From: Bacillales bacterium
GTDB lineage: Bacteria; Bacillota_I; Bacilli_A; RF39; UBA660
Reading direction: 5' to 3'
Length of the DNA: 50,939 nt
Assembly (NCBI GenBank): GCA_016291995.1
Contig: JAEEZV010000044.1
Coordinates: forward strand, 1-50,939
The position numbers were made by a program, and so were the translations under genes. Every line of letters starts with the position of its first letter. Within the stretch, counting starts at the first letter, position 1. The notes under the pieces were generated by a model that saw nothing but the letters and a program-made list of their open reading frames with translations, was not told where the DNA came from and made no database searches. Shown one piece after another: positions 14,882-43,563 of this stretch.

Positions 14882-14960
14882 ATGTGTTAAGTTTGTGTAT
14901 TTTTTGTTATAAATATGGACTTTTTAATATAAATTTAGTAAAATTATAGTGGGTGGTTGT

Positions 14961-16058
14961 ATGTATAATAAAGCGCTTAATGTGCTTAACATATTTCATG
15001 AAAATGGATATGAAGCATACATTGTTGGGGGATATCCGAGGGATTATCTACTCGGTATTAAAACTTTAGATATCGATATATGTACTAATGCAAAGCCAAA
15101 AGAAATAATGGAGATATTTGATACGGAAGCAGTTAGTGATGTTGGATATGGTTCTGTAAAGGTAATATATAAGAATGTAAAGTTTGATGTAACTACTTAT
15201 AGGGTTGATATTAAGTATGAAAAAAATAGAAAACCGATAAAGATTAAATATGTTACAGATTTAAAAAAAGATTTGCTTAGAAGAGACTTTACAATCAATA
15301 CGATATGTATTGATAAGGATGGTAATTTTATTGATCTACTTAATGGTAGAGAAGATTTAGATAATAGGGTTATTAAAACAGTTGGTAATCCTAGACATAG
15401 ATTAAAAGAAGATAGTTTAAGAATACTTAGAGCTATTAGATTTGCTTCTTTACTAGAATTTGATATTGATGATAGAACAGGATATTTTATTAAGAAATAT
15501 GGATATTTACTTAAGAGTCTATCTGGATCTAGGAAACGTGAAGAATTAGATAAGATTCTTACTTCTAGGAATAAGGAAATAGGTAGAAATTTACTTATAT
15601 CATTTGATTTATGTAAGTATTTAGGACTAAATAATTTATCAGATATTGTTTTATGTGATGATATTATTGGTATATGGAGTCAACTTGATGTTAGTGATGA
15701 TTATCCTTTTTCTAAATTAGAAAAAGAAACAATTAGAAAAGTTAGAGAATTATTAAATAAGGAATTAAATGAAATAAATATATATAGATATGGTCTTTAT
15801 ATATCAACAGTAGTTGGTAGTATTAAAGGTGTCAGTTACAAGATAATTAATAATATATATAAGAATTTGCCAATTACTAGTACAAAAGATATTTTACTTA
15901 GTGGAGAAGATATTAAGAAGATACTTAATCGTGAGCCTGGTAAATATATTAGTACTATTCTTAGCGATTTGGAAGAAAAGATTATCTTGGGGGAACTTGA
16001 GAATAATCGCGATGTACTTACAACGTATGTTCGTAATAATTATAAAGGTGATAAATAA
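14961..16058 (+). CDS. cca: CCA tRNA nucleotidyltransferase
   Basis: GGYPRDYLLG...DIDI nucleotidyltransferase motif and RRDFTIN. The ATG at 14961 follows GGGTGG. Confidence 0.85.
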   Translation: MYNKALNVLNIFHENGYEAYIVGGYPRDYLLGIKTLDIDICTNAKPKEIMEIFDTEAVSDVGYGSVKVIYKNVKFDVTTYRVDIKYEKNRKPIKIKYVTDLKKDLLRRDFTINTICIDKDGNFIDLLNGREDLDNRVIKTVGNPRHRLKEDSLRILRAIRFASLLEFDIDDRTGYFIKKYGYLLKSLSGSRKREELDKILTSRNKEIGRNLLISFDLCKYLGLNNLSDIVLCDDIIGIWSQLDVSDDYPFSKLEKETIRKVRELLNKELNEINIYRYGLYISTVVGSIKGVSYKIINNIYKNLPITSTKDILLSGEDIKKILNREPGKYISTILSDLEEKIILGELENNRDVLTTYVRNNYKGDK

Positions 16059-17035
16059 TGGGACTATTTAGTAAGATTAAGAATCTTTTTAGTGGTAATA
16101 ATAAGGAAGTAGTAGAGGAAGTAAAAAACTATGATACTGGACTTAAAAAGAGTAGAGAAGAATTTGTTAGTCAGTTAGCTAATTTATCTAAAAAGTATAA
16201 AAACATTTCAGAGGATTATTTTGAAGAGTTAGAGAACATACTAATAATGGCTGATATTGGTGTCAATACGGTTATGTCTTTTGTAGATAGATTAAGAGAT
16301 AGAGTTAAGAGTGAAAAGATTACAGATAGCAATATGCTAAAAGAGATAATAGTAGATGAATTATTTGTAATGTATGTTGGTAATAGTATTATCGATAGTA
16401 AAATACATTTTACGGAGAATGGACCTACGGTTATTCTTTATGTTGGAGTAAATGGTGTTGGTAAGACTACGACAATTGGTAAAATGGCTGCTCAATATAA
16501 GAATAAAGGTAAAAAGGTTATGATGGTAGCTGGAGATACTTTTAGAGCTGGAGCTATCGAACAGATAAATGAATGGGGAAGTAGAGTTGGATGTACAGTT
16601 GTTAGTGGAGAAAGTAAAGATCCATCTTCAGTTATTTATGATGCTTTGATTAAGGCAAAGGATGAAGACTACGATCTAGTAATGATCGATACGGCAGGAA
16701 GACTTCAGAATAAGACTAATTTGATGGAAGAATTAGCTAAAATTAATAGAGTTATTAAGAAGGTTATTCCAGAAGCACCGCATGAGGTATTGTTAGTAAT
16801 AGATGCTACGACTGGACAAAATGGTATTAGTCAAGCTAAATCATTTAAAGAAATTACGGATATTAGTGGAATAGTTCTTACAAAGTTAGATGGTACTGCT
16901 AAAGGTGGTATTGTTTTAGCTATCAAGGAAGAAGTTAATATACCAGTTAAATTTGTAGGACTTGGTGAAGGTATAGATCAAATCGAAGCATTCGATGTTG
17001 AAAAATATATATATGGATTATTTAAAGATTTGTGA
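16058..17035 (+). CDS. ftsY: Signal recognition particle receptor FtsY
   Basis: SRP GTPase motifs GVNGVGKTTT, DTAGR and TKLDGTAKGG. There is a 1-nt TAATG overlap with cca. Confidence 0.95.
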   Translation: MGLFSKIKNLFSGNNKEVVEEVKNYDTGLKKSREEFVSQLANLSKKYKNISEDYFEELENILIMADIGVNTVMSFVDRLRDRVKSEKITDSNMLKEIIVDELFVMYVGNSIIDSKIHFTENGPTVILYVGVNGVGKTTTIGKMAAQYKNKGKKVMMVAGDTFRAGAIEQINEWGSRVGCTVVSGESKDPSSVIYDALIKAKDEDYDLVMIDTAGRLQNKTNLMEELAKINRVIKKVIPEAPHEVLLVIDATTGQNGISQAKSFKEITDISGIVLTKLDGTAKGGIVLAIKEEVNIPVKFVGLGEGIDQIEAFDVEKYIYGLFKDL

Positions 17036-17044
17036 GGAACTGTA

Positions 17045-17338
17045 ATGGAAGATAGAGAGAAGATAGTTATTTTGTACGACTATTATGGTGAATTGTTAAC
17101 GGAAGTTCAAAGAGATTATTTTGAAGCTTATTACTTTGATAATCTATCGTTATCAGAGATAGGTGAGAATCTTAATAAAAGCAGAAATGCAGTACATAAG
17201 AATATTAAAAGCGTTGTAAGTAGACTTTATGAATATGAAGATAAGTTAAAGTTATACATGAAGGATGAAAAATTAAAAGAGATTATAAATGAAATAAATG
17301 ATAAAAAGATAAAGAAAGAATTAGAGGAATTGTTATGA
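17045..17338 (+). CDS. ylxM: YlxM/p13-like putative DNA-binding protein (UPF0122)
   Basis: 97 aa with LLTEVQRDYFEAYYFDNLSLSEIGENLNKSRNAVHKNIK, a sigma-70 region-4-like HTH. Confidence 0.8.
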   Translation: MEDREKIVILYDYYGELLTEVQRDYFEAYYFDNLSLSEIGENLNKSRNAVHKNIKSVVSRLYEYEDKLKLYMKDEKLKEIINEINDKKIKKELEELL

Positions 17339-17496
17339 AGAATAAATTGCCAGTAGTAATTGAAAATTATGATTTGCCGGTAGATGAATCTAAGGAAAAG
17401 GAAGATGAATCTAGGGGATATGCAAGTGTATTATTCTTACTTAGTGTAATGGTTGTTTGTTGGAGTGTTGTAACAATTATATTACTAGGAAGGTGA
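17335..17496 (+). CDS. Unannotated 53-aa tail-anchored small membrane protein
   Basis: It is absent from the supplied ORF track. Its ATG overlaps the ylxM stop (ATGA). Translation: MKNKLPVVIENYDLPVDESKEKEDESRGYASVLFLLSVMVVCWSVVTIILLGR, an acidic head plus one TM segment. Its last codons (GGAAGGTGA) form the RBS of the next gene. Confidence 0.45.
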   Translation: MKNKLPVVIENYDLPVDESKEKEDESRGYASVLFLLSVMVVCWSVVTIILLGR

Positions 17497-17500
17497 TAAT

Positions 17501-18397
17501 GTGAAAGAGAGTATATTAGAAAAATATGGTGAGAATTTAACAGCTAATAAATATATTGTCAATCCTGCTGTAGCTCGTGATAAGGAACTAAAAGAGTTGG
17601 TTATGGTACTTTTAACGCCAGAAAAATCAGCTTGTTTAGTTGGTAAACCAGGTATTGGTAAAACAGCTATCGTAGAGGGACTTGCTTATCGTATGCAACT
17701 AGGAGATATGCCTAATGCCTTAAAGGGATATACTGTTTATAAGATTAGTACACCATCTTTAGTAGGCAGTAGTGATGGCGAGAATAAGATTATGCAATTA
17801 GTTAATGAATTAAAGACTAAGGAAAAGGTAATTGTATTTATCGATGAGATACATATGTTAATGGGAGCAAGTAAAGATGGTCCTATGGATATGGCTAATA
17901 TGTTTAAAGAAGGACTTAGCCGTGGTACAGTTAAATTAATTGGTGCTACGACAGTCGATGAATATGAGAGATATATTCTTCGTGATAAGGCATTTGTAAG
18001 AAGATTTGAGAGAATAGATGTATCTGAACCAACACAAGAAATGTGTGTACAGATACTTATGAGAACAGTTCCTAAAATTGAAGCGCAAACGGGAGTAAAA
18101 TTAAATTATACGGATTTCATTAAGGAAAAGATAATGAAATTTATTGTCAATATGACAAGTGAATATAAGAGAGTATATGAGATATCTTCAAGATATCCAG
18201 ATATTGCGTTAACTGTTTTAAGACAAGCTTTTTCAGCAGCTTTATTCGATAATAGTAATGAAGTAAAATTTAGACATATATATGAAGCTGTTAAATCAAC
18301 TAAAGCAGTATATCCAGATGTTATTAAAAAAGAGCTTGTAGTATTTAAGGAAGAATTTAAAGAAGAATTAGAAAACGAAAATGTAGTAGTAGAATAA
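17501..18397 (+). CDS. Stand-alone AAA+ ATPase resembling the D1 module of ClpA/ClpB/ClpC
   Basis: Walker A GKPGIGKTAIVEGLA, Walker B VIVFIDEIHML, sensor-1 LIGATTVDEY and RRF arginine motif are present. There is no Clp N-domain, M-domain or D2. GSSDGENK lies where ClpC has the KYRGEFE pore loop. GTG start preceded by GGAAGGTGA. Confidence 0.7.
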   Translation: MKESILEKYGENLTANKYIVNPAVARDKELKELVMVLLTPEKSACLVGKPGIGKTAIVEGLAYRMQLGDMPNALKGYTVYKISTPSLVGSSDGENKIMQLVNELKTKEKVIVFIDEIHMLMGASKDGPMDMANMFKEGLSRGTVKLIGATTVDEYERYILRDKAFVRRFERIDVSEPTQEMCVQILMRTVPKIEAQTGVKLNYTDFIKEKIMKFIVNMTSEYKRVYEISSRYPDIALTVLRQAFSAALFDNSNEVKFRHIYEAVKSTKAVYPDVIKKELVVFKEEFKEELENENVVVE

Positions 18398-18418
18398 GGC
18401 TATCATGTAGGTGATAAT

Positions 18419-19876
18419 ATGAAAAGATTAAATGAATTGTATGATGTAGATAGTGACGTTATGATTACTGGAGTATCCATCAATAGTAAAGAAACTAAAA
18501 AGGGAGATATTTTTGTTTGTGTTCACGGTGCAAAGGTAGATAGACACGATTTTATTGATGATGCTATTAAGAATGGAGCTAGTGCTTTAGTCGTAGCTCA
18601 TGAAGTAAAGAGTAGCGTACCATATGTTGTTGTGGATAATCCCGATGATGAAGTTGTCTATTTATCTAAAAAAATATATGACTATGATCCCAATAAATTC
18701 CATTTATACGGTGTTACAGGAACAGATGGAAAGACTAGTGTAGCAACGATTGTATCTACGTTAATCGGAAATGATAAATGTGGTTATATCGGGACTAATG
18801 GTAGGAGTTGTGCATATTTTACTGGGGATACAGATAATACAACACCAGCGCCACATCAACTATATGGCTATTTTAAAGAGTTTTTAGATAGTGGATGTAA
18901 TAGTGTATGTATGGAAGCATCTTCAGAAGCTAAACTTAAGGGTAGATTAGATGGACTTAAATACGATGTTATTGGTATTACAAATATTACATCAGAACAC
19001 TTAAATAGTCATGGTACTTTAGAAAACTATGTTTTATGTAAGAAAGAGATAATGACACTTACTAAAGATAATGGATATTGTGTATTAAATCATGATGATT
19101 CATATTATAAGGAAGTTAGAGAATTTTGTAAGGGTAAGATTTTGACATATGGTATGGATAATGATAATGATTTACAAATTGTATCATTTGATTTACATAC
19201 AGATAAGACAGAGATTAAATTTAAGTATGATGGTGAAGTATATGATGTAACATCTCCATTACTAGGGGATTTTAATGTCTATAATTTAGCATGTGCAATG
19301 CTTATGTGTCTATCTCAAGGATATGAAATGAATTATCTGATTAGCAATATAAAGAATATTAATGTATCTGGTAGATTAGATACAATCGATTGTGGACAAG
19401 ATTTTACAGTAATGATCGATTATGCTCATACACCTAATGGAATTACTAGTTTGCTTAGATTTGTTAGATTATTGGAACCTAATAGGATTATTACAGTAAT
19501 TGGACAAGCAGGAGAAAGGGATCCATATAAGAGAAAAACTGTTGGTAAGGTTGTAGCTACTAATTCAGATGTAGCAATATTCTGTTATGAAGATCCAAGG
19601 AGTGAAGATCCTTTAAAAATAATCGAAATGATGTGCGAAGAAATAAAAGATAGGGATAATTATGAAGTAATTGTTGATAGAAGTGAAGCAATAAAACATG
19701 CTATCGATATTGCTAAGACGGGTGATATTGTATTAGTGTTAGGAAAAGGCAACGAAACATATGAGAAATTAAAAGATGGTACGATATATTTTAATGATGT
19801 AGAGGAAGCAACTAAACACTTAAAGGATAGACTAAAAAGAGAATCTTCTAAAGAAGAGGTGAAGATAGGTGTATAG
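18419..19876 (+). CDS. murE: UDP-N-acetylmuramoyl-L-alanyl-D-glutamate--diamino acid ligase (MurE), copy 1
   Basis: Mur ligase P-loop GVTGTDGKTS and DYAHTPNG. EDPRSEDP lies at the position of the DAP-specificity DNPR motif. Confidence 0.85.
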   Translation: MKRLNELYDVDSDVMITGVSINSKETKKGDIFVCVHGAKVDRHDFIDDAIKNGASALVVAHEVKSSVPYVVVDNPDDEVVYLSKKIYDYDPNKFHLYGVTGTDGKTSVATIVSTLIGNDKCGYIGTNGRSCAYFTGDTDNTTPAPHQLYGYFKEFLDSGCNSVCMEASSEAKLKGRLDGLKYDVIGITNITSEHLNSHGTLENYVLCKKEIMTLTKDNGYCVLNHDDSYYKEVREFCKGKILTYGMDNDNDLQIVSFDLHTDKTEIKFKYDGEVYDVTSPLLGDFNVYNLACAMLMCLSQGYEMNYLISNIKNINVSGRLDTIDCGQDFTVMIDYAHTPNGITSLLRFVRLLEPNRIITVIGQAGERDPYKRKTVGKVVATNSDVAIFCYEDPRSEDPLKIIEMMCEEIKDRDNYEVIVDRSEAIKHAIDIAKTGDIVLVLGKGNETYEKLKDGTIYFNDVEEATKHLKDRLKRESSKEEVKIGV

Positions 19877-21071
19877 AAATACTTATATTGAAGTTGATTT
19901 AGATAGGTTAAGTAAGAATGTTAAAGAAATAGTTAATACTTTTACAGGATATAAATACTATATAGGTATCGTTAAAGGAAACGCTTATGGATATGGAGAA
20001 TACATTTCTAAATGTATTACAGAAAATGGTATTAATTATTTAGCGGTATCTAGTTTAGAGGAAGCAATTAATGTTAGAAAGTATGTTAATGATATACCTC
20101 TTTTATGTTTAGAACCAATTTCAGTAGAATATATCGATGATATTATTAAGTATAATGTAACTATTTGTGTTAGTAGTTATGATTATTTTAATGAATTAAA
20201 GAAAGTTAAATTAGATAAGAAAGTTAAATTTCATTTAAAACTTAATACAGGTATGAATAGATTAGGTTTAAGTGATAAGGAAATTGTAAATAAAATATAT
20301 AAAGAAGCAAGTGAAATAGATAATCTATATTTAGAAGGAATATTTACACATTTAGCTACTTCAGGAGTATATGATAAATTATATAAAAGACAAATAGATA
20401 AGTTTAAAGAACTTGTTAGCGATATTGATTTAAGTAAGATCGATATTGTACATGTCGGAAGAAGTTGTACTTTAGATTTCTTTCCAAAGTTAGATTTTTG
20501 TAATGGTGTTAGGATAGGTATTATGATGTATGGAGTTGGATCAACATTTCCAGAATATAGAAGTGGATTATTGGGAAAACTACAACATTTTAAGAGAGAT
20601 AAATTTTATAAGAATAATGATTTACCAGTACCATATCAAAAGAAAAAGATTACTCCAATTCAAGCACTTAGTTTAAAAAGTGAAATAATAGAGATTCATG
20701 ATGCTAAAAGAGGAGATTATGTTGGATATGGATCAACTAATATGATAACTAATGATGGATATATTGCAGTTATTCCTCTTGGATATAGCGATGGTATTAT
20801 TCCGCATTATAATAATCTTAAGGTTAAAATAAATAATAGAGAATATCCAGTTGTGGGAAGTATCAATATGGGTATGATGACAATTATGGTTGATGATAAG
20901 GTTAAAGTTCATGATATAGCGACAATTATTGATTGTGAAATGGATTATAAGAAGTTAGCTCAGGAGTTTAATATATCACCATATGTATTGCTTACTAATT
21001 TGAGAAGAGAAATACCAAGGGTGTATACAAAAAATGGTAAGATGGTTAAGGTGATTAATTATGGAGAATAA
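19869..21071 (+). CDS. PLP-dependent racemase of the alanine racemase (Alr) fold
   Basis: PLP-lysine motif VKGNAYGYG, and GYG...IAVIPLGYSDG. There is an extra segment of roughly 35 aa (STFPEYRSGLLGKLQHFKRDKFYKNNDLPVPYQKK). GTG start that overlaps murE by 8 nt. Confidence 0.7.
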   Translation: MYRNTYIEVDLDRLSKNVKEIVNTFTGYKYYIGIVKGNAYGYGEYISKCITENGINYLAVSSLEEAINVRKYVNDIPLLCLEPISVEYIDDIIKYNVTICVSSYDYFNELKKVKLDKKVKFHLKLNTGMNRLGLSDKEIVNKIYKEASEIDNLYLEGIFTHLATSGVYDKLYKRQIDKFKELVSDIDLSKIDIVHVGRSCTLDFFPKLDFCNGVRIGIMMYGVGSTFPEYRSGLLGKLQHFKRDKFYKNNDLPVPYQKKKITPIQALSLKSEIIEIHDAKRGDYVGYGSTNMITNDGYIAVIPLGYSDGIIPHYNNLKVKINNREYPVVGSINMGMMTIMVDDKVKVHDIATIIDCEMDYKKLAQEFNISPYVLLTNLRREIPRVYTKNGKMVKVINYGE

Positions 21072-22281
21072 GTTTGATGTAGTATTAATTGGTACAGATG
21101 TTAATGCCTATTATATGGCTAGAAATTTTCATGAAGAATATGGTATTAAATCACATGTTATAGGTAGAGTATCAATGCTATTTACAACATTATCTAGTAT
21201 TATTGATTTAACAATAGTTCCCGATTTAATAAAGGAAGATGTTTTTGTTAAGGAATTAGTTAAACTTGCTAAGAAAATTAAGAATAAAAAGATTATATTG
21301 GTAGGTTGTAACGATGATTATGTTTCATTAATTATTAGAAATAAAAAAGAATTAAGTAAATATTATTTGTTTAATTATACAAATATTGATTTATTTAATA
21401 CTTTGGTAAACAAAGAAGCATTTTATAAGAAATATGGGGATGTTTTAGATATACCTAAGACTTATATTTATAATGTTAAAGAAGAATTAGATGAGAATAA
21501 AGTTAGTGAATTTAGATATCCCGTGATAATTAAGCCTAGTAATATTATTAGATATCATGAATGTGAATTTCCAGGACAAGCTAAGATATATAGATTAAAT
21601 GATATTATGGAAGTACATAAGACGATTGATGATATTAAAGGGGCTGGATATGATGACTGTTTAATTATACAGGAATTTATCCCGGGAGATGATACGAGAT
21701 TATTTGATTCAGTATTCTATGTCAATAGTAGAGGAAAGGTAGAATTACAAAGTTTTGGACAGATTGGTTTACAGGAACATACGAAGACTGGTTTAGGTAA
21801 TTTGACGGTATTAATTAATGGTTATAATGAATTTAATAATACGAAGATTGTCAAAGATAAGTTAAAGAAATTTTTGGAAGATATTCATTTTAATGGAATA
21901 TGTGAATTCGATTTAAAATATGATATTAGAGATAAAAAATTTAAGGTGTTTGAAATAAATGCTAGACAGGCTAGAAGTAGTTATTATTTAACAGCTTGTG
22001 GTTATAATTTGGCTAAATATTTAGTTATGGATTTAATAGAGAATAAAGATAATGAATTTGTATTTATCGATAATAAGATAGCATTATCTTTTGTACCAGA
22101 CTTTGTTATTCGCCATTTTATTAAGAATAAGGAATACAAAAAGGAATTCTTTAGATTAAAAAGAGAAGGATTATATACAGATCCTTTGGTATATAAAGAA
22201 GATATGTCTAGTAAAAGAAAAAAATGGTTGTTTAAAAGAGATATTAATTATATAAAGAAATATATGACAAATAAGTGGTAG
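21061..22281 (+). CDS. ATP-grasp carboxylate-amine ligase, D-aspartate-ligase-like
   Basis: N-terminal VVLIGTDVNAYYMARNFHEEYG, then QEFIPGDD and FDLKYD..D.KFKVFEINARQARSSYY. The pattern resembles the peptidoglycan side-chain D-Asp ligase family. It overlaps the racemase gene by 11 nt. Confidence 0.6.
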   Translation: MENKFDVVLIGTDVNAYYMARNFHEEYGIKSHVIGRVSMLFTTLSSIIDLTIVPDLIKEDVFVKELVKLAKKIKNKKIILVGCNDDYVSLIIRNKKELSKYYLFNYTNIDLFNTLVNKEAFYKKYGDVLDIPKTYIYNVKEELDENKVSEFRYPVIIKPSNIIRYHECEFPGQAKIYRLNDIMEVHKTIDDIKGAGYDDCLIIQEFIPGDDTRLFDSVFYVNSRGKVELQSFGQIGLQEHTKTGLGNLTVLINGYNEFNNTKIVKDKLKKFLEDIHFNGICEFDLKYDIRDKKFKVFEINARQARSSYYLTACGYNLAKYLVMDLIENKDNEFVFIDNKIALSFVPDFVIRHFIKNKEYKKEFFRLKREGLYTDPLVYKEDMSSKRKKWLFKRDINYIKKYMTNKW

Positions 22282-22289
22282 GTGATATT

Positions 22290-24140
22290 ATGTGCGGATT
22301 TGTAGGCTTTGTCGATAAGAAAAAGAAAGATGAAAAAGATAAAATTATCAAAAAAATGGCTGATATTATTAAACATAGAGGACCTGATGATGATGGATAC
22401 TATACGGATAATAATGTTGCATTAGGATTTCGTAGACTATCAATAATAGATTTAGATGGTGGTGCTCAGCCAATTTATAATGAAAAGAAAGATAAGGTTA
22501 TTGTCTTTAATGGTGAAATATATAATTATAGGGAAATAAGAGATGATTTGTTAAAACTTGGATATAAGTTTAGTACAAAATCAGATACCGAAGTTATTCT
22601 ACATGGATATGAAGAATATGGTGAAGATGTATTATCTAGATTAAGAGGAATGTTTGCTTTTGTTATCTATGATGTTAAAGAAAAGAAAGTGTTCGGAGCA
22701 AGAGACTTTTTTGGAATTAAACCATTATACTATGGTAAATTTGATAATGTATTTATGTTTGGATCAGAAATTAAGAGTTTTTTAGCTCATCCAGATTTTA
22801 AGAAAGAACTTAATAAAGAAGCGTTAAAGCCTTATTTAACATTTCAATATTCATGTTTAAATGAAACATTTTTTAAGAATGTTTATAAGATAGATCCAGG
22901 ACATTATTTTATATATAAAGATAATAAATTAGAAATTAGGAAATACTATGACATTGCGTATAATAATGGTAGGGATGAATTAGATAAAGTCGTAGATACA
23001 ATTAATGATACGATGAAAAGTAGTATTGAATATCATAAGATTAGTGACGTTGAAGTAGGAAGTTTCTTATCTAGTGGAGTAGATTCATCATATATTGTCA
23101 GTTGTGCAGATGTCGATAAGAGTTTTACGGTAGGATTTAAAAATGAGGGATTTGATGAGTGCGAGCCAGCTCGTGAATTATCAAAGATTCTTAAGAAGAA
23201 ACATCGTGAAGAAATGATAACACCAGATATGTTCTTTGATATTTTACCTACGGTACAATATCATTCTGATGAACCACATGCTAACTTGTCAGCAGTTCCA
23301 TTATACTTCTTATCAAAGATGGCAAGTGAAGACGTAAAAGTAGTTTTATCTGGTGAAGGTGCTGATGAATTATTTGGGGGATACCTAGATTATTATGATG
23401 CACCAGTAGTACGTAGATATAAAAAGATTCCATATTTTATAAGACATGGAATAGCTCTTTTGGCTAAACCTTTTCCTAAGGCAAAAGGAAGAAATTTCTT
23501 AGTTAGAAATGGAATGCCTTTATATGATCATTATATTGGTCAAGCATTTATTATGAATAATGATGAAGCTAATGATTTATTACAAGATAAATATAAAAGT
23601 GATTTGAGATATCAAGATATTGTCAAGAGTACTTTAGATGAAGTTAAAGGAAAACCAGAAGTTATTCAAAAAATGTATTTGGATATGAAATTTTGGTTAC
23701 CATATGATATACTACTAAAAGCTGATAAGATGACAATGGCTAATTCTTTGGAACTTAGGGTACCATTTCTAGATAAAGAAGTATTTAAGATGGCAAGTAC
23801 AGTACCAGTTAAATATTTGGTTACGAAGGATACTACCAAGTATGCATTTAGAAAAGCTGCTAATGAAAAAATACCTAGTGAATGGGCTAAGAGAAAGAAA
23901 TTAGGTTTTTTAGTTCCGTTTAGGGAATGGATTAAACAGGATAAATATTATAAGAAAGTTAAGAGTGTATTTAATGAGGAATTTGTAAAGGAATTCTTTG
24001 ATACAGATAAGTTAATGAAGTTACTAGATGATCATTATAATGGCGTCAAGAATAATGGTAGAAAGGTATATACAATATATTCATTCTTACTTTGGTATAA
24101 AGTATATTTTATGAATGGTTATGAAGAACTAGTTAAATAG
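22290..24140 (+). CDS. asnB: Asparagine synthase (glutamine-hydrolysing) family amidotransferase
   Basis: Met-Cys N-terminus (MCGFVGF) of Ntn amidotransferases, then RGPDD and the SGGVDSS-like PP-loop (LSSGVDSS). The ATG at 22290 follows GGTAGGTGA. Confidence 0.9.
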   Translation: MCGFVGFVDKKKKDEKDKIIKKMADIIKHRGPDDDGYYTDNNVALGFRRLSIIDLDGGAQPIYNEKKDKVIVFNGEIYNYREIRDDLLKLGYKFSTKSDTEVILHGYEEYGEDVLSRLRGMFAFVIYDVKEKKVFGARDFFGIKPLYYGKFDNVFMFGSEIKSFLAHPDFKKELNKEALKPYLTFQYSCLNETFFKNVYKIDPGHYFIYKDNKLEIRKYYDIAYNNGRDELDKVVDTINDTMKSSIEYHKISDVEVGSFLSSGVDSSYIVSCADVDKSFTVGFKNEGFDECEPARELSKILKKKHREEMITPDMFFDILPTVQYHSDEPHANLSAVPLYFLSKMASEDVKVVLSGEGADELFGGYLDYYDAPVVRRYKKIPYFIRHGIALLAKPFPKAKGRNFLVRNGMPLYDHYIGQAFIMNNDEANDLLQDKYKSDLRYQDIVKSTLDEVKGKPEVIQKMYLDMKFWLPYDILLKADKMTMANSLELRVPFLDKEVFKMASTVPVKYLVTKDTTKYAFRKAANEKIPSEWAKRKKLGFLVPFREWIKQDKYYKKVKSVFNEEFVKEFFDTDKLMKLLDDHYNGVKNNGRKVYTIYSFLLWYKVYFMNGYEELVK

Positions 24141-24153
24141 TTCTTCTTTTTTT
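24123..24153 (+). terminator. Intrinsic terminator after asnB
   Basis: GAAGAACTA-gttaaa-TAGTTCTTC followed by T7. The stop codon lies in the 3' arm. Confidence 0.8.
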
Positions 24154-24183
24154 ATGTAGACATATATTTATATGGGGATGTAT

Positions 24184-25641
24184 ATGTTATTAAGCGAGTT
24201 ATTAAAAGAGATAGACTATAGAGTTATTAAAGGAGATATAGATATATATGTAGGTGATATTTGTTATGATTCAAAAAAAATAAAGAAAGATGATTTATTC
24301 GTAGCAATTATTGGATTTAAATTGGATGGCCATGATTATATTGATGAAGTTATTAATAAGGGAAGTAGATGTGTTATTGTTTCTAAAGATATAGATATAA
24401 TTAATGATATAACGGTTATTAAGGTAGATGATACAAGAAAAATATTAGCTAAGTTATCGATGAGGTTATTTAATTATCCACAAAATAAGCTTAAAACAAT
24501 TGCTGTAACTGGTACTAAAGGGAAGACTACGACAACATTTATGATTAAGAAAATACTTGAAGAAGCAGGTTATAAATGTGGGATTATTGGGACAACGGGA
24601 GTATATATTGGAGATACGGTATATCAGGTTAATAATACGACACCGGAATCATATGAAATAATTAAATATATGTCTTTGATGGCCAAAGAGAAAATGGATT
24701 ATATGGTTATGGAAGTATCTAGTCAAGCGTTAAAATATGATAGGGTATACGATATTATTTATGATTATGGGATATTTACTAATCTAAGTGAAGATCATGT
24801 TGGAATGTATGAACATGATAGTATGGAAGATTATGTTAAGAGTAAAGCAAAATTATTTAAGCAATGTAAGTGTGGAATATTTAATATAGATGATAATTAT
24901 TATGGTGATATGATTTCTAGTAGTAATATCAACACTTTTGGTTATGATAAGAAAGCAGATCTTAGAGCAGTGAATATGAAATTATATAGAGAAGGATCTA
25001 ATATTGGAATTATTCTTGATGTTGATGGAGTAGTAAGGGATAGATTTAAGGTTAGTACACCGGGAAGATTTTCTTCATATAATGCGATGGCAGCTATTCT
25101 TACTTCTTATTTGATTGGAATAGATAATAAATATATTAAGAAGGCTCTTTGTAATTTTTCGGTTAAAGGAAGAGTAGAACCAATATATGTTGGTGATGAT
25201 TTAACTTTACTTATCGATTATGCGCACAATGGGATTAGTACAAAGAGTGTACTTACCACTATTAGAGAATACAATCCTAAGAGAATAGTAACTATTTTTG
25301 GATGTGGGGGAAATAGAAGCCCTATTAGAAGATATGAAATGGGAGAAATAGCTGGAAAATATTCAGATTTTTGTATTATTACAGAAGATAATAATAGATA
25401 TGAAGAATTTAGTGATATTGTTAGAGATATACTTAAGGGTATTAGTAAGACCAAATGTAAATATAAGATAATATCCGATAGGAAAGAAGCAATTAAATAT
25501 GCGATAGAGAATGGTAGAAAGGGAGATATTATTATGCTTATTGGGAAGGGACATGAAGATTATAAGGAAATAAAAGGAGTAAAATACCCATTTGATGAAA
25601 GAAAAATAATAAAAGAAATATTAAGGGAGATAAATCGATAA
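24184..25641 (+). CDS. MurE-family Mur ligase, copy 2 (divergent)
   Basis: P-loop AVTGTKGKTTT and DYAHNGIS. EDNNRYEE lies at the DNPR position. Three in-frame ATGs (24172, 24178, 24184); 24184 has the best spacing from GGGGA. Confidence 0.75.
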   Translation: MLLSELLKEIDYRVIKGDIDIYVGDICYDSKKIKKDDLFVAIIGFKLDGHDYIDEVINKGSRCVIVSKDIDIINDITVIKVDDTRKILAKLSMRLFNYPQNKLKTIAVTGTKGKTTTTFMIKKILEEAGYKCGIIGTTGVYIGDTVYQVNNTTPESYEIIKYMSLMAKEKMDYMVMEVSSQALKYDRVYDIIYDYGIFTNLSEDHVGMYEHDSMEDYVKSKAKLFKQCKCGIFNIDDNYYGDMISSSNINTFGYDKKADLRAVNMKLYREGSNIGIILDVDGVVRDRFKVSTPGRFSSYNAMAAILTSYLIGIDNKYIKKALCNFSVKGRVEPIYVGDDLTLLIDYAHNGISTKSVLTTIREYNPKRIVTIFGCGGNRSPIRRYEMGEIAGKYSDFCIITEDNNRYEEFSDIVRDILKGISKTKCKYKIISDRKEAIKYAIENGRKGDIIMLIGKGHEDYKEIKGVKYPFDERKIIKEILREINR

Positions 25642-25657
25642 AAATATATTTTTTATA

Positions 25658-25686
25658 TTGAAAAAAATTAGGGTATTTGCTATAAT
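25658..25686 (+). promoter_or_regulatory. Sigma-A-type promoter of lemA
   Basis: TTGAAA, 17 bp, TGcTATAAT (extended -10), followed by AGGAGG and the ATG at 25705. Confidence 0.6.
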
Positions 25687-25704
25687 TTTTTTAGGAGGAA
25701 TGAT

Positions 25705-26259
25705 ATGGGTACAGTAATTATTATAATAGTTGGTGTTTTAGTAGTTCTTGCTAGTTATGTTATTTCTGTATATAACAAATTAGTTAATGCTAGAAACAAA
25801 GTTGACAATCAATTTAGTCAAATTGACATTCAACTTAAAAGAAGAGCTGATTTAATACCTAACTTAGTGGAAACAGTGAAAGGATATGCAAAGCATGAAA
25901 AAACTGCATTTACAGAGGTAGTTGAAGCTAGAAATAAAGCAATTAGTGCTGGCTCTGTAAATGAAAAGATCGAAGCAAATGAACAATTGACGGGAGCTCT
26001 TAATAAATTATTTGCTTTAGCTGAAGCTTATCCAGAACTTAAAGCTAATGAAAACTTTATAAAACTTCAAGAAGATCTTAAAGATACTGAAGATAAGATT
26101 ACATATGCAAGACAATTCTATAATGATTCAGCTATGAGTTATAATAACTTAATTCAAATGTTTCCATCAAATATTGTAGCTTCAATATTTGGATTCAAGA
26201 AATATAGTTATTTTGAAGCTAACGAAAAAGACAAAGAAACACCTAAAGTAAGCTTTTAG
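25705..26259 (+). CDS. lemA: LemA family protein
   Basis: N-terminal TM segment, then YNKLVNARNKVDNQFSQIDIQLKRRADLIPNLVETVKGYAKHE and YPELKANENF, which is the canonical LemA signature. Confidence 0.85.
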   Translation: MGTVIIIIVGVLVVLASYVISVYNKLVNARNKVDNQFSQIDIQLKRRADLIPNLVETVKGYAKHEKTAFTEVVEARNKAISAGSVNEKIEANEQLTGALNKLFALAEAYPELKANENFIKLQEDLKDTEDKITYARQFYNDSAMSYNNLIQMFPSNIVASIFGFKKYSYFEANEKDKETPKVSF

Positions 26260-26290
26260 ACTTTTATAGTCTTTTTCTTTAGGGGGATGT

Positions 26291-26917
26291 ATGCAAGTAG
26301 AATTAGATGGTAAAATTTATGATGTAGAAATTATAAAGAAAAGTAATAAGAATATTTATATAAGAGTTAAAGATGGTAAAATCGTAGCTACGTGTAATTA
26401 TTTAGCGAGTAAGAATAGTATTTTAAAACTTATAATGGATAATAAGAAAAGTATTATCAAAATGTTAGATAAGGATAGTAAAAAAAATGATAGAAATGAA
26501 AATTTTTATTATTTTGGTAAATGTTATGATGTTATATATGGATTATCGGATATAGAATTTTCAGGTAATAAATTATATGCACCATCTAAGATGAAATTAG
26601 ATAAATATATCAAGAAAGAGATTTTAAGGATATATGAAGATAGATTAGATTATTGGTACAATAGATTTACTGAAAATATACCAGAACCTAGTTTAAGAAT
26701 TAGAAAGATGACAAGTAGATGGGGTGTATGTAATACAGCTAGTCATGTTATTACACTTAATTATAATTTATCTAAGTATGATATAACGTGTTTAGACTAT
26801 GTTATTGTACATGAACTTAGTCATTTAATATATCCAAATCATCAAGAGGGTTTTTGGCGTTTGGTAGGAAAGTATTATCCTAAATACAAAGAAGCAAGGA
26901 AAATGTTAAAGGAATGA
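26291..26917 (+). CDS. YgjP-like (DUF45 / M48-related) metal-dependent hydrolase
   Basis: MTSRWGVCN and HELSHLIYPNH zinc motif near the C-terminus. Confidence 0.75.
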   Translation: MQVELDGKIYDVEIIKKSNKNIYIRVKDGKIVATCNYLASKNSILKLIMDNKKSIIKMLDKDSKKNDRNENFYYFGKCYDVIYGLSDIEFSGNKLYAPSKMKLDKYIKKEILRIYEDRLDYWYNRFTENIPEPSLRIRKMTSRWGVCNTASHVITLNYNLSKYDITCLDYVIVHELSHLIYPNHQEGFWRLVGKYYPKYKEARKMLKE

Positions 26918-26921
26918 TAAG

Positions 26922-28598
26922 ATGAAAACAAAAATATTTGTAATGTTAATTGCTTTATTATTATTTCCAACGATAGCGTTTGCAGATCATATTTATAAGA
27001 TAGATATGACAATAGATTTATTGGAAGATGGTAGTGCTAATATAACAGAAGTTTGGGATGTAAAAGCAAGTTCTGGTAGTGAATGGTATAAGCAATTATA
27101 CGATATGGGAAATGAAGAATTATCAAATTTTAAAGCTTATATGGATGACGAGGAAATGACATATAAGAATTGGAATGTTAATGAGAGCTTGAGTGAGAAG
27201 AGAGGTTACTATGGAATAAATTATGTTTCAGATGGTCTTGAACTTTGCTTTGGTAAAGGAGATATGCAGAGACATACATTTAAACTTACATATACTTTAT
27301 CTAATATGATATTTAATGTATCAGATGCACAAGTATTTTATCAAACATTATTTCCTAATGTAACACTAGATCATTTTACAGTTATGATAACTAGTTATTA
27401 TGAGTTTCCTGATACATTAGATGTATGGGGATATGGTGGACAATATCTAGCATATGTTGCTGATGGAAAGATAATTTTAGATAGTGAAAATTATTCACTT
27501 AATAATGATTATGTAACGGTATTAGTTAAATTTCCTGTAGAAACATTTAGAACAAGTAATAGTTATAGTTGGTATACAAGTTTTGATGAAATATTAGATA
27601 CAGCCAATGATGGTACCTGGGAATATGATTATACAGTAAAAGTAAGTCTTCTTAATAAGATTTTAAATTTTCTATCTGGAATAGCACCATTTGCATTCTT
27701 TTTTGCAATAATTGGTGTAAGTGCTAAAACTGCTATCAATAGTGGATATGGTTATATCGGAAATAAAAAGATAGATAAAAAAGAAGTGCCAATGTGGAGA
27801 GATATACCTTGTGATAAGGATATATACTATGCTAATGCTTTGACATTCTTAAATAATTTTGATTTTAAAGAAACTAATATTTTGGGAGCAATTATTCTTA
27901 AATGGATTAAGAATGATAAGGTAACTTTGACTAAAGCAGAAAGTGGAATATTAAAGAAAGAAGTAACCGCAATTGATTTAAATAAGGATGTTACTTTAGA
28001 TAATGAACTAGAAGAAAAACTATTTAAGATTATGAGATCTGCTAGTAAAGATGGTATTTTAGAGCCTAGAGAGTTTCAAAGTTGGGCAAGAAGTCACTAC
28101 GATAAATTCTTTAGTGTATTTAAGAGTATTAAAAACGATGCGGTAGATAAATTAGAGAGTGCTGGACATGTACGTAATCGTACTGATAAGAAAGAGTGCT
28201 CTAAGAAGCATGTTATGGATGATAAGATATATGAAGATAGTGTTAAATTATATGGACTTAAGAAATACTTAATAGAGTTTTCTAATATGAAAGATAAAGA
28301 TGCTATTGAAGTAAAATTATGGGATGAATATTTAATGTTTGCATATATCTTTGGAATAGCAGATAAAGTTGCTAAACAATTTAAGAATCTATATCCAGAA
28401 ATTGTCGAAGAAATGGAACATTATGGTATGGATTATATGATAATGAGAGATATTAGTGATATGTCTGCAAGAACTGTTGCAGCAGCAAGTAGTGCAAGAA
28501 GTGCTGCTGAAAGCTACTCTGGTGGCGGAGGAGGATTCTCTTCTGGCGGCGGCGGAGGCGGAAGCTTCGGTGGCGGCGGTTCAATGGGAGGACGTTAA
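26922..28598 (+). CDS. DUF2207-like membrane protein with a Gly-rich C-terminal tail
   Basis: Signal peptide, an extracellular domain of about 230 aa, a TM segment, a cytoplasmic domain, and the tail SGGGGGFSSGGGGGGSFGGGGSMGGR. It is paired with lemA, as is common in Bacillota. Confidence 0.7.
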   Translation: MKTKIFVMLIALLLFPTIAFADHIYKIDMTIDLLEDGSANITEVWDVKASSGSEWYKQLYDMGNEELSNFKAYMDDEEMTYKNWNVNESLSEKRGYYGINYVSDGLELCFGKGDMQRHTFKLTYTLSNMIFNVSDAQVFYQTLFPNVTLDHFTVMITSYYEFPDTLDVWGYGGQYLAYVADGKIILDSENYSLNNDYVTVLVKFPVETFRTSNSYSWYTSFDEILDTANDGTWEYDYTVKVSLLNKILNFLSGIAPFAFFFAIIGVSAKTAINSGYGYIGNKKIDKKEVPMWRDIPCDKDIYYANALTFLNNFDFKETNILGAIILKWIKNDKVTLTKAESGILKKEVTAIDLNKDVTLDNELEEKLFKIMRSASKDGILEPREFQSWARSHYDKFFSVFKSIKNDAVDKLESAGHVRNRTDKKECSKKHVMDDKIYEDSVKLYGLKKYLIEFSNMKDKDAIEVKLWDEYLMFAYIFGIADKVAKQFKNLYPEIVEEMEHYGMDYMIMRDISDMSARTVAAASSARSAAESYSGGGGGFSSGGGGGGSFGGGGSMGGR

Positions 28599-28625
28599 AA
28601 AAGAAAGAATTTCTTTCTTTTTTTA
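28597..28625 (+). terminator. Intrinsic terminator
   Basis: AAAAGAAAGA-att-TCTTTCTTTTTTT. Confidence 0.65.
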
Positions 28626-28639
28626 CTATCAGTTAATTC

Positions 28640-28669
28640 TTGATTAAGATTTATTCATTTTGGTAATAT
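28640..28669 (+). promoter_or_regulatory. Putative promoter of dinD
   Basis: TTGATT, 18 bp, TGgTAATAT (extended -10). Confidence 0.4.
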
Positions 28670-28733
28670 TTGATGCAAAAAAAGTAAATGTACCTATCTT
28701 TCTTGAATATTATTTATGAAGGAGGAGAAAAAA

Positions 28734-29549
28734 ATGAATGATATTGAAGAATATGGAGAAATATTATTTGAAAAGATTAAACATATTGATGAAGACGGGA
28801 ATGAATATTGGCTAGCGAGAGAGTTAATGGTGGCCTTACAATATAAAAAATGGGATAAATATATTAATGTTATCGAACAGGCAAGAACTTCATGTAAGAA
28901 TAGCGATAGTAGTATATCTGATCATTTTCTCCAGGTGGGGAAAATGATCAATATAGCAAATGGCGGTCAAAGAAAAATATTAGATTACAAATTATCCCGT
29001 TATGCATGTTATTTGATTGCACAAAATGCTGATTCTAAAAAGAAAGTTGTGGCTCTAGCTCAAACTTATTTTGCTGTACAGACTAGGAGGATGGAGATTA
29101 CCGAAAAGGAATATAATGGATTAACTGAGGACGACAAAAGATTTTATCGCAGAGAACAAACGAAAAATGGAAATTATTCATTAAATCTTGCTGCTAGAGA
29201 TGCTGGCGTTAAGAACTTTGATAAGTTTCATAACGCTGGATATAAGGGACTATACAATGGTGAAACTGCTAATGACATCGCTAAGAGAAAAGGACTTAGA
29301 TATCGTGAAGATATATTAGATAATATGGGTAGTGAAGAGTTAGCTGCCAATATATTTAGGATTAGTCAAACGGAAGCAAAACTAAAAAGAGATATTATTA
29401 ATAGTGAAGATAATGCCAATAAAACTCACTATGATGTTGGTAAAGAAGTTAGAAGAACTATTGAAAGACTAGGCGGAACAATGCCAGAAGATTTACCGAC
29501 ACCAGAAAAAAGTTTAAAAGAACTAGGGAAGAATAAACTAATAAAATAA
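28734..29549 (+). CDS. dinD: DNA damage-inducible protein D (DinD)-like protein
   Basis: Recalled similarity along the length to E. coli DinD: SRYACYLIAQN, AQTYFAVQTRR, GSEELAANIFRISQTEAKLKRD and LGGTMPEDLPTPEKSLKEL. The ATG at 28734 follows AAGGAGGAG; the track start at 28716 lies inside the RBS. Confidence 0.85.
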   Translation: MNDIEEYGEILFEKIKHIDEDGNEYWLARELMVALQYKKWDKYINVIEQARTSCKNSDSSISDHFLQVGKMINIANGGQRKILDYKLSRYACYLIAQNADSKKKVVALAQTYFAVQTRRMEITEKEYNGLTEDDKRFYRREQTKNGNYSLNLAARDAGVKNFDKFHNAGYKGLYNGETANDIAKRKGLRYREDILDNMGSEELAANIFRISQTEAKLKRDIINSEDNANKTHYDVGKEVRRTIERLGGTMPEDLPTPEKSLKELGKNKLIK

Positions 29550-29588
29550 GGGTTTATATTAGTTTTTGTTTCTTTTTCTTTTTTTAAA

Positions 29589-29597
29589 TGATATAAT
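29589..29597 (+). promoter_or_regulatory. Extended -10 element (TGaTATAAT) upstream of the SpoU methyltransferase gene
   Basis: TG at 29589-29590 and TATAAT at 29592-29597, followed by GTGGTGA and the ATG at 29616. Confidence 0.45.
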
Positions 29598-29615
29598 GAA
29601 ATTAGTGGTGATACT

Positions 29616-30341
29616 ATGACAATAACGTCAGTTAATAATGATAGAATAAAGGAATTGGTTAAATTAAAAGATAAAAAATATCGTGATTTAAATGATTTAT
29701 TTTTCGTAGAGGGAAAAGATTTATGTGACGTAGCTTATGAAAAGGGGCTACTTAGAGAGATATTTATTATTGATGGATATGATAATTATTACGATGGAAT
29801 ACCTTTAACATATGTATCTAATGATGTTATGAAAAAGATTAGTAGTATGGAATCATGTAGTCCATATTTTGGCGTTTGTGCTAAATGTGTTGAAGGAGAA
29901 CTTGGTAACAAAATACTTATACTCGATAACATTCAAGATCCTGGTAATTTAGGAACAATTATAAGAAGTGCGGTAGCTTTTAAATTTGATACAGTAGTTC
30001 TTAGTAGTAATACTGTCGATTTATATAATCCTAAAGTAGTTCGTAGTACTAAGGGTATGTTATTTAATATGAATATAATCGTAAGAGATTTATTAACTTT
30101 TTTACCAGAATTAGATGGATATACAATATACGGAACTGATGTTACTAATGGTATTAATATAAAAGAAGAGAAAATACCAGAAAAATGTGCTATTATAATT
30201 GGTAACGAGGGAAATGGTATTAGTAATGAAGTTAGGGAATACTGTGAGAAATTCTTGTATATTGGAATGGAAGAGGGTTGCGAGAGTTTAAATGCCGGTG
30301 TTTCAGCTTCGATACTGATGTATGAGGTGTATAATAAATGA
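29616..30341 (+). CDS. TrmH/SpoU family RNA 2'-O-methyltransferase
   Basis: SPOUT motifs LDNIQDPGNLGTIIRSA, IIIGNEGNGIS and SLNAGVSASI. Confidence 0.8.
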   Translation: MTITSVNNDRIKELVKLKDKKYRDLNDLFFVEGKDLCDVAYEKGLLREIFIIDGYDNYYDGIPLTYVSNDVMKKISSMESCSPYFGVCAKCVEGELGNKILILDNIQDPGNLGTIIRSAVAFKFDTVVLSSNTVDLYNPKVVRSTKGMLFNMNIIVRDLLTFLPELDGYTIYGTDVTNGINIKEEKIPEKCAIIIGNEGNGISNEVREYCEKFLYIGMEEGCESLNAGVSASILMYEVYNK

Positions 30342-41505: not shown

Positions 41506-41526
41506 TTGAATGTTGAGGTGTGGTAT

Positions 41527-43551: not shown

Positions 43552-43563
43552 GGGGATGAGAAA

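Follow-up and report, generated by a model that had tools for sequence, protein, structure and literature searches.

A four-gene cassette ahead of a resident murE in a Bacillales genome and its probable role in building a peptidoglycan side chain

The 50,939-nucleotide (nt) contig JAEEZV010000044.1 of a Bacillales bacterium (assembly GCA_016291995.1), referred to at its full length as the window, carries two murE genes, murE1 and murE2, with genes for an Alr-fold racemase, an ATP-grasp ligase and an AsnB-type amidotransferase between them. The question raised by this locus is what such a set of genes produces and why it stands in front of a second murE. The murE1, racemase, ligase and asnB genes are a 5.7-kb cassette flanked by two resident genes, an AAA gene and murE2, and they probably encode a peptidoglycan side-chain pathway composed of a diamino acid, a D-amino-acid branch and an amidation step. 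The evidence for this reading is homology, gene linkage and synteny, from which the chemistry is inferred, and every substrate named below for a cassette enzyme is a prediction of that kind. Contigs or loci and proteins found in the searches are given as L and P numbers.

The cassette and the two MurE enzymes

The window has a G+C content of 28% with a strong positive GC skew, and every gene from 17.5 to 26.3 kb is encoded on the + strand. The cassette and its flanks are composed of the following features:

17501..18397, + strand: stand-alone AAA ATPase, ClpA/ClpB D1-like, 298 amino acids (aa), at the left edge and outside the cassette (Pfam AAA, partial ClpA/B matches in NCBIfam)
18419..19876, + strand: murE1 (Mur_ligase N, M and C domains)
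19869..21071, + strand: Alr-fold racemase (Ala_racemase_N and Ala_racemase_C; TIGR00492)
21061..22281, + strand: ATP-grasp ligase (marginal Pfam match; AlphaFold2 (AF2) model)
22290..24140, + strand: asnB-type amidotransferase (GATase_6/7 and Asn_synthase; TIGR01536)
24123..24153, + strand: hairpin resembling an intrinsic terminator, with U7, right edge of the cassette (folding energy, shuffles)
24184..25641, + strand: murE2, resident, with an alternative start at 24172 (NF001126, synteny)
25705..26259, + strand: lemA, resident flank (Pfam LemA)

A metagenome scan with MurE2 identified approximately 20 contigs encoding orthologues with 65–73% identity, in which the MurE2 motif is exactly conserved (IITEDNNRYEEF). 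On at least 19 contigs, the AAA gene (83–91% identity) directly precedes the murE2 orthologue and the four cassette genes are absent; lemA (about 80%) follows at variable spacing where these cassette-less contigs reach that far. The four genes of the window and their terminator are therefore a 5.7-kb block at this site. An earlier note on this DNA, made by a model from the sequence alone, described the four genes as one operon beside a murE paralogue; they are indeed tightly packed, but they are better described as an insertable cassette ahead of a resident murE. The same block occupies the same site on two long contigs (L176 and L177), with cassette identities to the window of 88% for MurE1, 86% for the ligase, 86% for AsnB and 77% for the racemase, and flank identities of 71% for MurE2, 85% for the AAA protein and 82% for LemA. 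All trees in this work are neighbour-joining trees of single proteins. In the tree of MurE2 the cassette carriers are not sisters, which weakly suggests that the cassette was gained, lost or exchanged more than once. Three further loci (L004, L005 and L018) carry ligase, AsnB and MurE1-like genes in a different order and place, the MurE1 orthologues (60–73% identity) following ligase and AsnB. No transposase or integrase open reading frame (ORF) of at least 80 aa was present in the listed stretch 14949-30341, the only direct repeat common to both cassette edges was a trivial ATGTAG hexamer, and there was no compositional sign of recent transfer, the GC content being 26–31% throughout.

The ORF list and the Pfam and NCBIfam searches agree with the earlier description of five + strand ORFs, in their coordinates and domain content, and with overlaps of 8 nt between murE1 and the racemase gene (19869-19876) and 11 nt between the racemase and ligase genes (21061-21071). 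The gap between the ligase gene and asnB, previously given as 9 nt, is 8 nt, with asnB starting at ATG 22290; an AGGTGA Shine-Dalgarno sequence lies 5' of this start, which yields the N-terminal MCGF nucleophile. The hairpin at 24123-24146 overlaps the asnB stop codon and has a 9-bp stem (3 GC) with a folding energy of -11.3 kcal/mol (z = -3.6 versus shuffles), followed by a TTTTTTT tract. A terminator is thus credible here, although it is of moderate strength and not the strong one first proposed. The start of murE2 is most likely ATG 24184, which has a GGGGA Shine-Dalgarno sequence and lies about 30 nt after the U-tract, the distance given in the earlier note. The stop codon of the AAA gene lies 21 nt ahead of the murE1 ATG, and this gene may be co-transcribed with murE, being conserved directly upstream of the resident murE in relatives.

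The two MurE proteins are 32% identical, and the motif alignment places EDPR in MurE1 and DNNR in MurE2, as had been read from the sequence. Against PDB entries, MurE1 scored 246 bits with the L/D-Lys MurE of Thermotoga maritima and 244 bits with the L-Lys MurE of Staphylococcus aureus, compared to at most 186 bits with enzymes that add diaminopimelic acid (DAP). MurE2 scored 225–232 bits with DAP enzymes versus 205 bits with the S. aureus Lys enzyme. Family NF001126 does not discriminate between the copies, because both are above its cutoff (MurE2 at 491 bits). The motifs of MurE1 are EDPR, GKGNETY and AGERD, and those of MurE2 are DNNR, GKGHEDY and GCGGNRS..RR. The meso-DAP (mDAP) ligases of Bacillus and Listeria feature DNPR and GKGHE[DT]Y; MurE2, which like its orthologues has DNNR, GKGHEDY and a basic pair, clusters with DNPR MurE proteins and equals these ligases at three specificity segments save for the change of Pro to Asn. 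From the mDAP motif set (DNPR, GKGHE and a basic pair after GGxRD), MurE1 is without the D-N pair and the His. Most ligase-linked MurE proteins, falling in three separate clades, have E-D-(P/A)-(R/G) with Asn, Ala, Leu or Phe in place of the His, and the S. aureus Lys ligase has DNPA and SKGRE. MurE1, with EDPR and GKGNE, shares xDPR with the T. maritima enzyme (DDPR, L-/D-Lys) and AGERD with the S. aureus enzyme (DNPA, L-Lys); unlike these two, MurE proteins of related modules have EDAR, beside an L-2,4-diaminobutyrate (L-Dab) transaminase, or EDPG.

By these motifs and the synteny, MurE2 is classed as the resident, DAP-like enzyme and MurE1 as a cassette-borne enzyme of non-DAP type whose predicted substrate is L-Lys or a different non-DAP diamino acid. 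The earlier note had suggested that the second MurE may add the unusual residue. The reverse was found, with MurE2 conserved, including GKGHEDY, in cassette-less relatives and MurE1 (EDPR, GKGNE) the unusual one. Nothing supports the B-type cross-link suggested with it; there is no extra Mur-type ligase for the alpha-carboxyl of D-Glu, and MurE2 is a conserved resident enzyme. With MurE2 as the original DAP-type enzyme, a cell holding the cassette could make two kinds of stem or may have switched chemotype.

In six loci (L036, L053, L065, L075, L077 and L083; five labelled Lachnospiraceae, one Bacilli), a gene encoding an EctB-type diaminobutyrate-2-oxoglutarate transaminase (L036:9231-10496; TIGR02407 583 bits versus a cutoff of 552) is located between asnB and an EDAR-motif MurE gene. 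This linkage suggests that these lineages place L-2,4-diaminobutyrate at position 3 of a branched peptidoglycan of the A type.

The racemase-ligase module

A genome scan with one genome per GTDB species provided 342 relatives, and the counts below cover the best 80. The ligases of these 80 are 43–71% identical to the window ligase and all come from metagenome-assembled genomes (MAGs) labelled Bacilli, 'Tenericutes/Mollicutes', Erysipelotrichaceae, Clostridia, Lachnospiraceae, Acutalibacteraceae, Coriobacteriia or Saccharibacteria, plus a few that are doubtfully binned. In 67 loci, a racemase orthologue (33–63% identity to that of the window) is encoded on the same strand as the ligase and immediately ahead of it, and most of these racemase genes overlap the ligase start or end within about 50 nt of it. 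One further locus contains a truncated racemase copy and two are too near a contig edge to tell. Because the adjacency recurs in 67/80 independent species-level genomes, it is no chance juxtaposition. AsnB is encoded directly downstream of the ligase in 25 loci, ahead of the racemase in four and anywhere in the locus in 32. MurE is present in 26 loci, and 25 loci have a same-strand MurE gene no more than 5 kb away. The neighbourhood is that of cell-wall genes: M23 peptidases, MurJ-like flippases, SpoIID, MreB, a MraY/TagO-like transferase, MurA and FtsEX recur in it, and penicillin-binding protein (PBP) and femAB genes are also among the neighbours. The proposal of a stem-peptide side-chain pathway of the Asl/AsnB type is upheld by these neighbourhoods in 80 genomes together with the homology of the ligase and AsnB.

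Neither the window nor any of the 80 related loci encodes a PF01177 racemase, the Asp/Glu-type (RacD) enzyme; the position of an aspartate racemase beside the ligase is filled by the Alr-fold racemase. In Alr-clade loci without a racemase (L004, L005 and L027), a RacD-type substitute was sought and rejected, the neighbours being an unrelated methyltransferase, a YnbB-like pyridoxal phosphate (PLP) enzyme and a short-chain dehydrogenase. Searches for cultured carriers with ligase and racemase homologues and the genome scan returned only MAGs or canonical Alr, as did cluster look-ups of ten 50%-level representatives and a racemase tblastn search against plasmid records. Another locus (L069:5029-12909) has no racemase with its ligase and encodes two AsnB paralogues in tandem, a MurE with the canonical DNPR and a MurF-like Mur ligase that begins with a membrane region.

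The ligase did not exhibit a convincing match in Pfam, NCBIfam or PDB sequence searches, the Pfam match being marginal only. Its AF2 model (mean confidence, pLDDT, of 90) matched ATP-grasp ligases with a Foldseek probability of 1.0, the structural neighbours at no more than 15% identity being L-amino-acid ligases, PurK and PylC. The fold carries the Mg/ATP-binding residues, with K158, E298, N300 and R302 invariant. Several homologues bear the JGI label 'D-aspartate ligase'. A tblastn search against plasmid records, some of which are really pieces of chromosome, identified full-length homologues with 32–37% identity in Lactobacillus crispatus, L. fermentum, L. curvatus and Subdoligranulum variabile, and those of the three Lactobacillaceae are 32–34% identical over 95–99% of the length (E = 1e-50 to 1e-58). 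The gene order is aspS, an Asp/Glu-type racemase (PF01177) and the ligase in L. curvatus, asnB and the ligase in L. crispatus, and the ligase, a PF01177 racemase and AsnB in S. variabile. Judged by homology, the window ligase belongs to the D-aspartate ligase family (Asl, EC 6.3.1.12), the comparators being the Lactobacillaceae and S. variabile homologues.

Window-clade and RacD-linked ligases have 33 conserved positions in common. In the trees, all Alr-linked ligases group in one clade, and the RacD-linked and Lactobacillaceae ligases form its sister clade. Five conserved positions are clade-specific (window clade to RacD clade: L214M, Q238E, G254E, E282N and L342W), and the window ligase has L, Q, G, E and L where the RacD-clade signature is M214, E238, E254, N282 and W/F342. 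Three of the five alter the charge and lie on strands directed towards the catalytic centre of the AF2 model, and the differing positions are probably in the active site. The split fits a changed substrate and simple co-inheritance equally well. Ligase phylogeny was tried as an arbiter of the substrate and fails, because racemase type tracks ligase clade perfectly and the tree is unable to separate 'same substrate' from 'new substrate'. Among more distant ligases, P0249 (40% identity to the window) and P0398 (35%) are followed by a PF01177 racemase, and P0395 (34%) and P0303 (33%) have AsnB and MurE genes nearby.

The ligase P0392 (36% to the window) has a distant Alr-like subfamily member upstream and adjoins a FemAB gene. 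At L088:3842-4762 (- strand), a divergently oriented gene for a FemAB-family, aminoacyl-tRNA-dependent transferase lies beside a distant Alr-like racemase-ligase pair, a hint that this organism may build its bridges from several residues. A third group of ligases falls between the two clades (P0246, P0248, P0254, P0257 and P0259; L093 and L094) and has the signature L/I-Q-R-N-F. There is no adjacent racemase in the two contexts seen, one of which contains a divergent class A PBP and the other MurE, sortase and LysM genes.

The racemase scored 231.8 bits with TIGR00492 (cutoff 168) and is approximately 30% identical to Firmicute Alr proteins in the PDB; its AF2 model (pLDDT 93) gave TM-scores of 0.83–0.88 to Alr structures. 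Homologues number 2,244 at E <= 1e-10, all top matches coming from MAGs, and the database name is alanine racemase everywhere. The VKGNAYGYG motif reported before is present, and the catalytic residues are kept (K36, Y40, R131, H161, R215, Y287, Y306 and Y372 in window numbering), as is the fold-type III PLP fold with Lys39, Tyr265', Arg136, His166 and Arg219. The 67 module racemases were aligned with S. aureus Alr, whose numbering is used for the changes that follow, and with five canonical Alr proteins from the same loci. The subfamily exhibits Gly86 to Glu, Val87 to Pro, Asp173 to Gly in 67/67, Asn203 to Arg or Lys in 64/67 with His205 and Lys207 close by, Arg309' to Asp, Glu or Thr, Asp313' to Gly in 44/67 and Gln314' to Met in 64/67. 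The canonical entryway and second-shell set (Asp171/173, Asn203, Arg309', Asp313' and Gln314') is thus replaced in 44–67 of the 67, whereas the canonical Alr proteins from the same loci keep it. Basic residues are gained beside the phosphate-binding Ser (R/K203, H205 and K207) and D173 is lost.

The insertion noticed earlier in the racemase is present, but it is about 30 aa long (residues ~229–260, relative to S. aureus Alr) and not about 35. It is basic and conserved in the subfamily, with a helix predicted at 233–249 (pLDDT ~88–90). Two members (P0455 and P0465; 54–59% identity) have lost most of it and keep LEP, T-x-G, K203 and MGM, and P0463, P0464, P0466 and P0469, judged by length, are likewise without most of it; the insertion is therefore not essential to the definition of the subfamily.

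In five loci a canonical Alr, 26–29% identical to the window racemase, is encoded about 3.5 kb away. This coexistence and the co-travel with the ligase across phyla disfavour a housekeeping role and argue for a dedicated, non-canonical Alr-fold enzyme. A VanT-type serine racemase is not indicated, because Tyr354 is kept in 60/67 racemases and the VanT change of Tyr354 to Asn is absent. Compared with Alr, VanT, Bsr, Lyr and the Leuconostoc histidine racemase, the window racemase has the fold (TM 0.83–0.88), the PLP lysine, Tyr265', Arg136, His166 and Arg219 in common, and differs in G86E/V87P, D173G, N203R/K, R309D/E/T, D313G, Q314M and the insertion. It is also tied to an Asl-type ligase, in contrast to the D-Ala-D-Ala or D-Ala-D-Ser synthesis of Alr and VanT systems.

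The D-amino acid and competing readings

In the proposed pathway, MurE1 would add a non-DAP diamino acid, most likely L-Lys, to position 3 of UDP-MurNAc-L-Ala-D-Glu, and the Alr-fold racemase would produce a D-amino acid from its L-form. The ligase would convert a carboxyl group of this D-amino acid to an acyl phosphate and join it to the free omega-amino group of residue 3. A carboxyl that is still free would be amidated by AsnB, in the way that AsnH acts on D-Asp and AsnB1 on mDAP. The alpha-amine of the branch would then be the acceptor in transpeptidation. MurE2 may be kept to make a second kind of stem, to be used in a mixed wall, during a different growth phase or in a spore cortex.

The window AsnB (TIGR01536, 537 bits) has an N-terminal Met-Cys, the glutaminase Cys, and the Asn_synthase domain, and is linked to asl and murE genes. 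It is 46.5% identical to the AsnB beside the L. crispatus ligase and 50–52% identical to those near the S. variabile, P0303 and P0395 ligases, and AsnB proteins are orthologous across the Alr-linked and RacD-linked groups (46–52%). The free carboxyl that this enzyme is predicted to amidate in the branched precursor is either the alpha-carboxyl of D-Asp or that of the diamino acid. With the racemase slot filled by one type or the other, the pattern is that of non-orthologous displacement, which makes D-Asp the economical guess. The leading guess for the branch is D-Asp or another acidic D-amino acid, in which case the Alr-fold enzyme would be a non-orthologous replacement of RacD. The frequent AsnB linkage and, in the racemase, the gain of basic residues and the loss of D173 would also favour an acidic substrate. 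An acidic D-amino acid, D-Asp first, has about an even chance. The fuller claim, that this is the first Alr-fold racemase of an acidic amino acid (Asp) and that a mobile cassette switches a directly cross-linked DAP wall to a Lys-D-Asx branched wall, is put forward only tentatively.

Several points weigh against an acidic branch and the pathway around it. We know of no Alr-fold enzyme that racemises Asp or Glu, and literature searches provided no example of one with acidic substrates. Y354, M312 and Y265, residues that delimit a pocket for small side chains in Alr, are kept in the racemase. The Alr-linked ligases are separate from all RacD-linked ones, with E238Q, E254G and N282E in the direction from the RacD clade to the window clade. 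AsnB is encoded in only 32/80 loci, and its presence is no proof of an acidic branch because AsnH-type and AsnB1-type enzymes are close homologues. The substrate of MurE1 is assigned from motifs only, and every carrier of the module found is uncultured.

A serious though tentative alternative has the same architecture with another D-amino acid (D-Ser, D-Ala, D-Asn/Gln or a basic one), the ligase having changed its specificity along with the racemase, and AsnB amidating the diamino acid or D-Glu instead. The known specificities of the Alr family are for Ala, Ser (VanT), His, Lys and broad sets without acidic residues, all of which fit this alternative, as do the ligase signature that shifts exactly with racemase type and the retained Tyr354 equivalent. 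An asnB1 gene colocalised with murE also serves mDAP amidation in L. plantarum (PMC4155827). D-Ser in particular is opposed by the absence of the VanT hallmark, Tyr354 to Asn, and a basic D-amino acid by the gain of basic and loss of acidic residues near the site. The AsnB proteins beside Alr-linked ligases are orthologous (about 50%) to those beside RacD-linked ones, and with a neutral D-amino acid linked by its alpha-carboxyl, the branch would offer no group to amidate. The caution in the earlier note that the side-chain residue may differ from D-Asp remains legitimate, as the Alr-linked ligases are a clade of their own with changed conserved residues. As a variant, this clade may install a D-amino-acid branch that is absent from the catalogued peptidoglycan chemotypes.

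It is unlikely, though it would complement the side-chain pathway and not replace it, that the cassette serves a Lys-type branched vegetative wall and MurE2 provides DAP stems for a second structure such as the spore cortex. MurE2 is intact with its lineage-conserved motif, spoIID-like genes lie near the module in 13 loci, and a small acid-soluble spore protein (SSPI, PF14098) is encoded at L176:12599-12817 (- strand), and at the same place on L177, between murE2 and lemA. The window itself contains no sporulation genes across its 50.9 kb and has 63 nt between murE2 and lemA. Cassette-less relatives rely on MurE2 alone, which makes it a general housekeeping enzyme.

That the racemase is simply the alanine racemase of the cell, placed in a cell-wall operon, and that the ligase uses D-Asp made elsewhere, is very improbable. 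Its score above the TIGR00492 cutoff, the retention of all catalytic residues and Tyr354 and the uniform database names would fit; against these stand the co-travel of the pair across phyla, the canonical Alr (26–29% identical) in five of the loci, the subfamily-specific entryway residues and insertion, and the absence of RacD-type genes from all 80 loci. What an acidic and another D-amino acid leave is a small remainder, which falls to a dedicated alanine racemase together with all other possibilities. A role outside the cell wall, with the racemase and ligase making a small D-amino-acid peptide or a resistance-type dipeptide in the manner of VanT with a Ddl-type ligase, is extremely improbable. 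Racemase and ATP-grasp pairs do exist in vancomycin-resistance clusters and dipeptide antibiotic synthesis, and L-amino-acid ligases are among the top Foldseek matches. The ligase, however, has no Ddl family match and is homologous over its full length to the Asl-type ligases found in organisms with Lys-D-Asp walls; its recurrent neighbours are genes of the cell wall, MurE and AsnB among them, and no van genes or transporters are present.

Known systems, implications and other genes of the window

The vegetative wall of Lysinibacillus sphaericus is of the Lys-D-Asp type and its cortex contains mDAP, with separate Lys-adding and DAP-adding activities. The window resembles this organism in having a Lys-type and a DAP-type MurE in one genome together with a D-Asp-type branch, each as predicted above. 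Unlike L. sphaericus, it has no sign of sporulation, and its Lys-type enzyme would be part of a cassette that some close relatives have and others lack.

A review on the cell walls of lactic acid bacteria describes the racD-aslA operon, in which AsnH amidates the D-Asp bridge, and AsnB1 beside murE, which is responsible for mDAP amidation (PMC4155827). The racD-aslA/AsnH pathway is that of Lactococcus lactis, Enterococcus faecium and lactobacilli (PMC4155827, citing Bellais 2006 and Veiga 2006/2009). The cassette has the same ligase family as racD-aslA (32–37% identity, 33 common conserved positions), a racemase gene adjoining the ligase, an AsnB-family amidotransferase (46–52%) and an association with non-DAP MurE. 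The racemase of racD-aslA is cofactor-independent and of the Asp/Glu type, whereas that of the cassette is PLP-dependent and Alr-fold; the cassette further differs in that its ligase is in a sister clade, murE is inside the unit, the unit is insertable and its D-amino acid is only inferred. In the AsnB1-murE pair of L. plantarum, LtsA and AsnB of Bacillus subtilis, an AsnB-family gene is found beside murE, and here asnB is directly upstream of the DAP-like murE2. In contrast to the L. plantarum pair, asnB is cassette-borne and separated from murE2 by a terminator, and elsewhere it follows the ligase and not a DAP-type murE. The logic of the pathway is already known; what is new is the Alr-fold subfamily tied to an Asl-type clade, the murE within the unit and the presence or absence of the unit among relatives.

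The peptidoglycan chemotype determines how host receptors view gut bacteria and influences how well these withstand lysozyme, endolysins, bacteriocins and cationic peptides. The receptor NOD1 recognises stems of the DAP type, from which those of the Lys type differ. If the reading is correct, a compact cassette with its own MurE, racemase, ligase and amidotransferase would be a simple genetic route to switch or mix chemotypes in unculturable lineages, and it would be widespread among the uncultured Bacilli, Clostridia, Coriobacteriia and Saccharibacteria of the gut. If the product of the racemase is D-Asp or some other D-amino acid, a fold that serves as a drug target would have a new catalytic specificity, and the annotation of the subfamily would be wrong in many places.

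The remainder of the window is rich in envelope functions. Two surface-protein paralogues (2689-4323 and 39847-41475) contain Ig-like and Amidase_3 (MurNAc-L-Ala amidase) domains, and two tandem LtaS-like genes of the sulfatase family are located at 41506-45492. The genes at 10726-11952, 45579-46745 and 46735-47901 comprise two of the sodium:dicarboxylate symporter family, one of which overlaps a class I/II aminotransferase gene; these could import or make Asp or Glu and have no linkage to the cassette. Proteins with Bro-N/KilA-N domains and a helix-turn-helix (HTH) regulator, typical of phage-derived genes, are encoded at 28716-29549, 35467-36315 and 37116-37580. They are scattered amid the housekeeping genes trmD, rimM and a pgsA-like gene and may be prophage remnants. 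A DUF2207 membrane protein (26922-28598) ends in a tail of about 35 residues composed only of Gly and Ser (SGGGGGFSSGGGGGGSFGGGGSMGGR).

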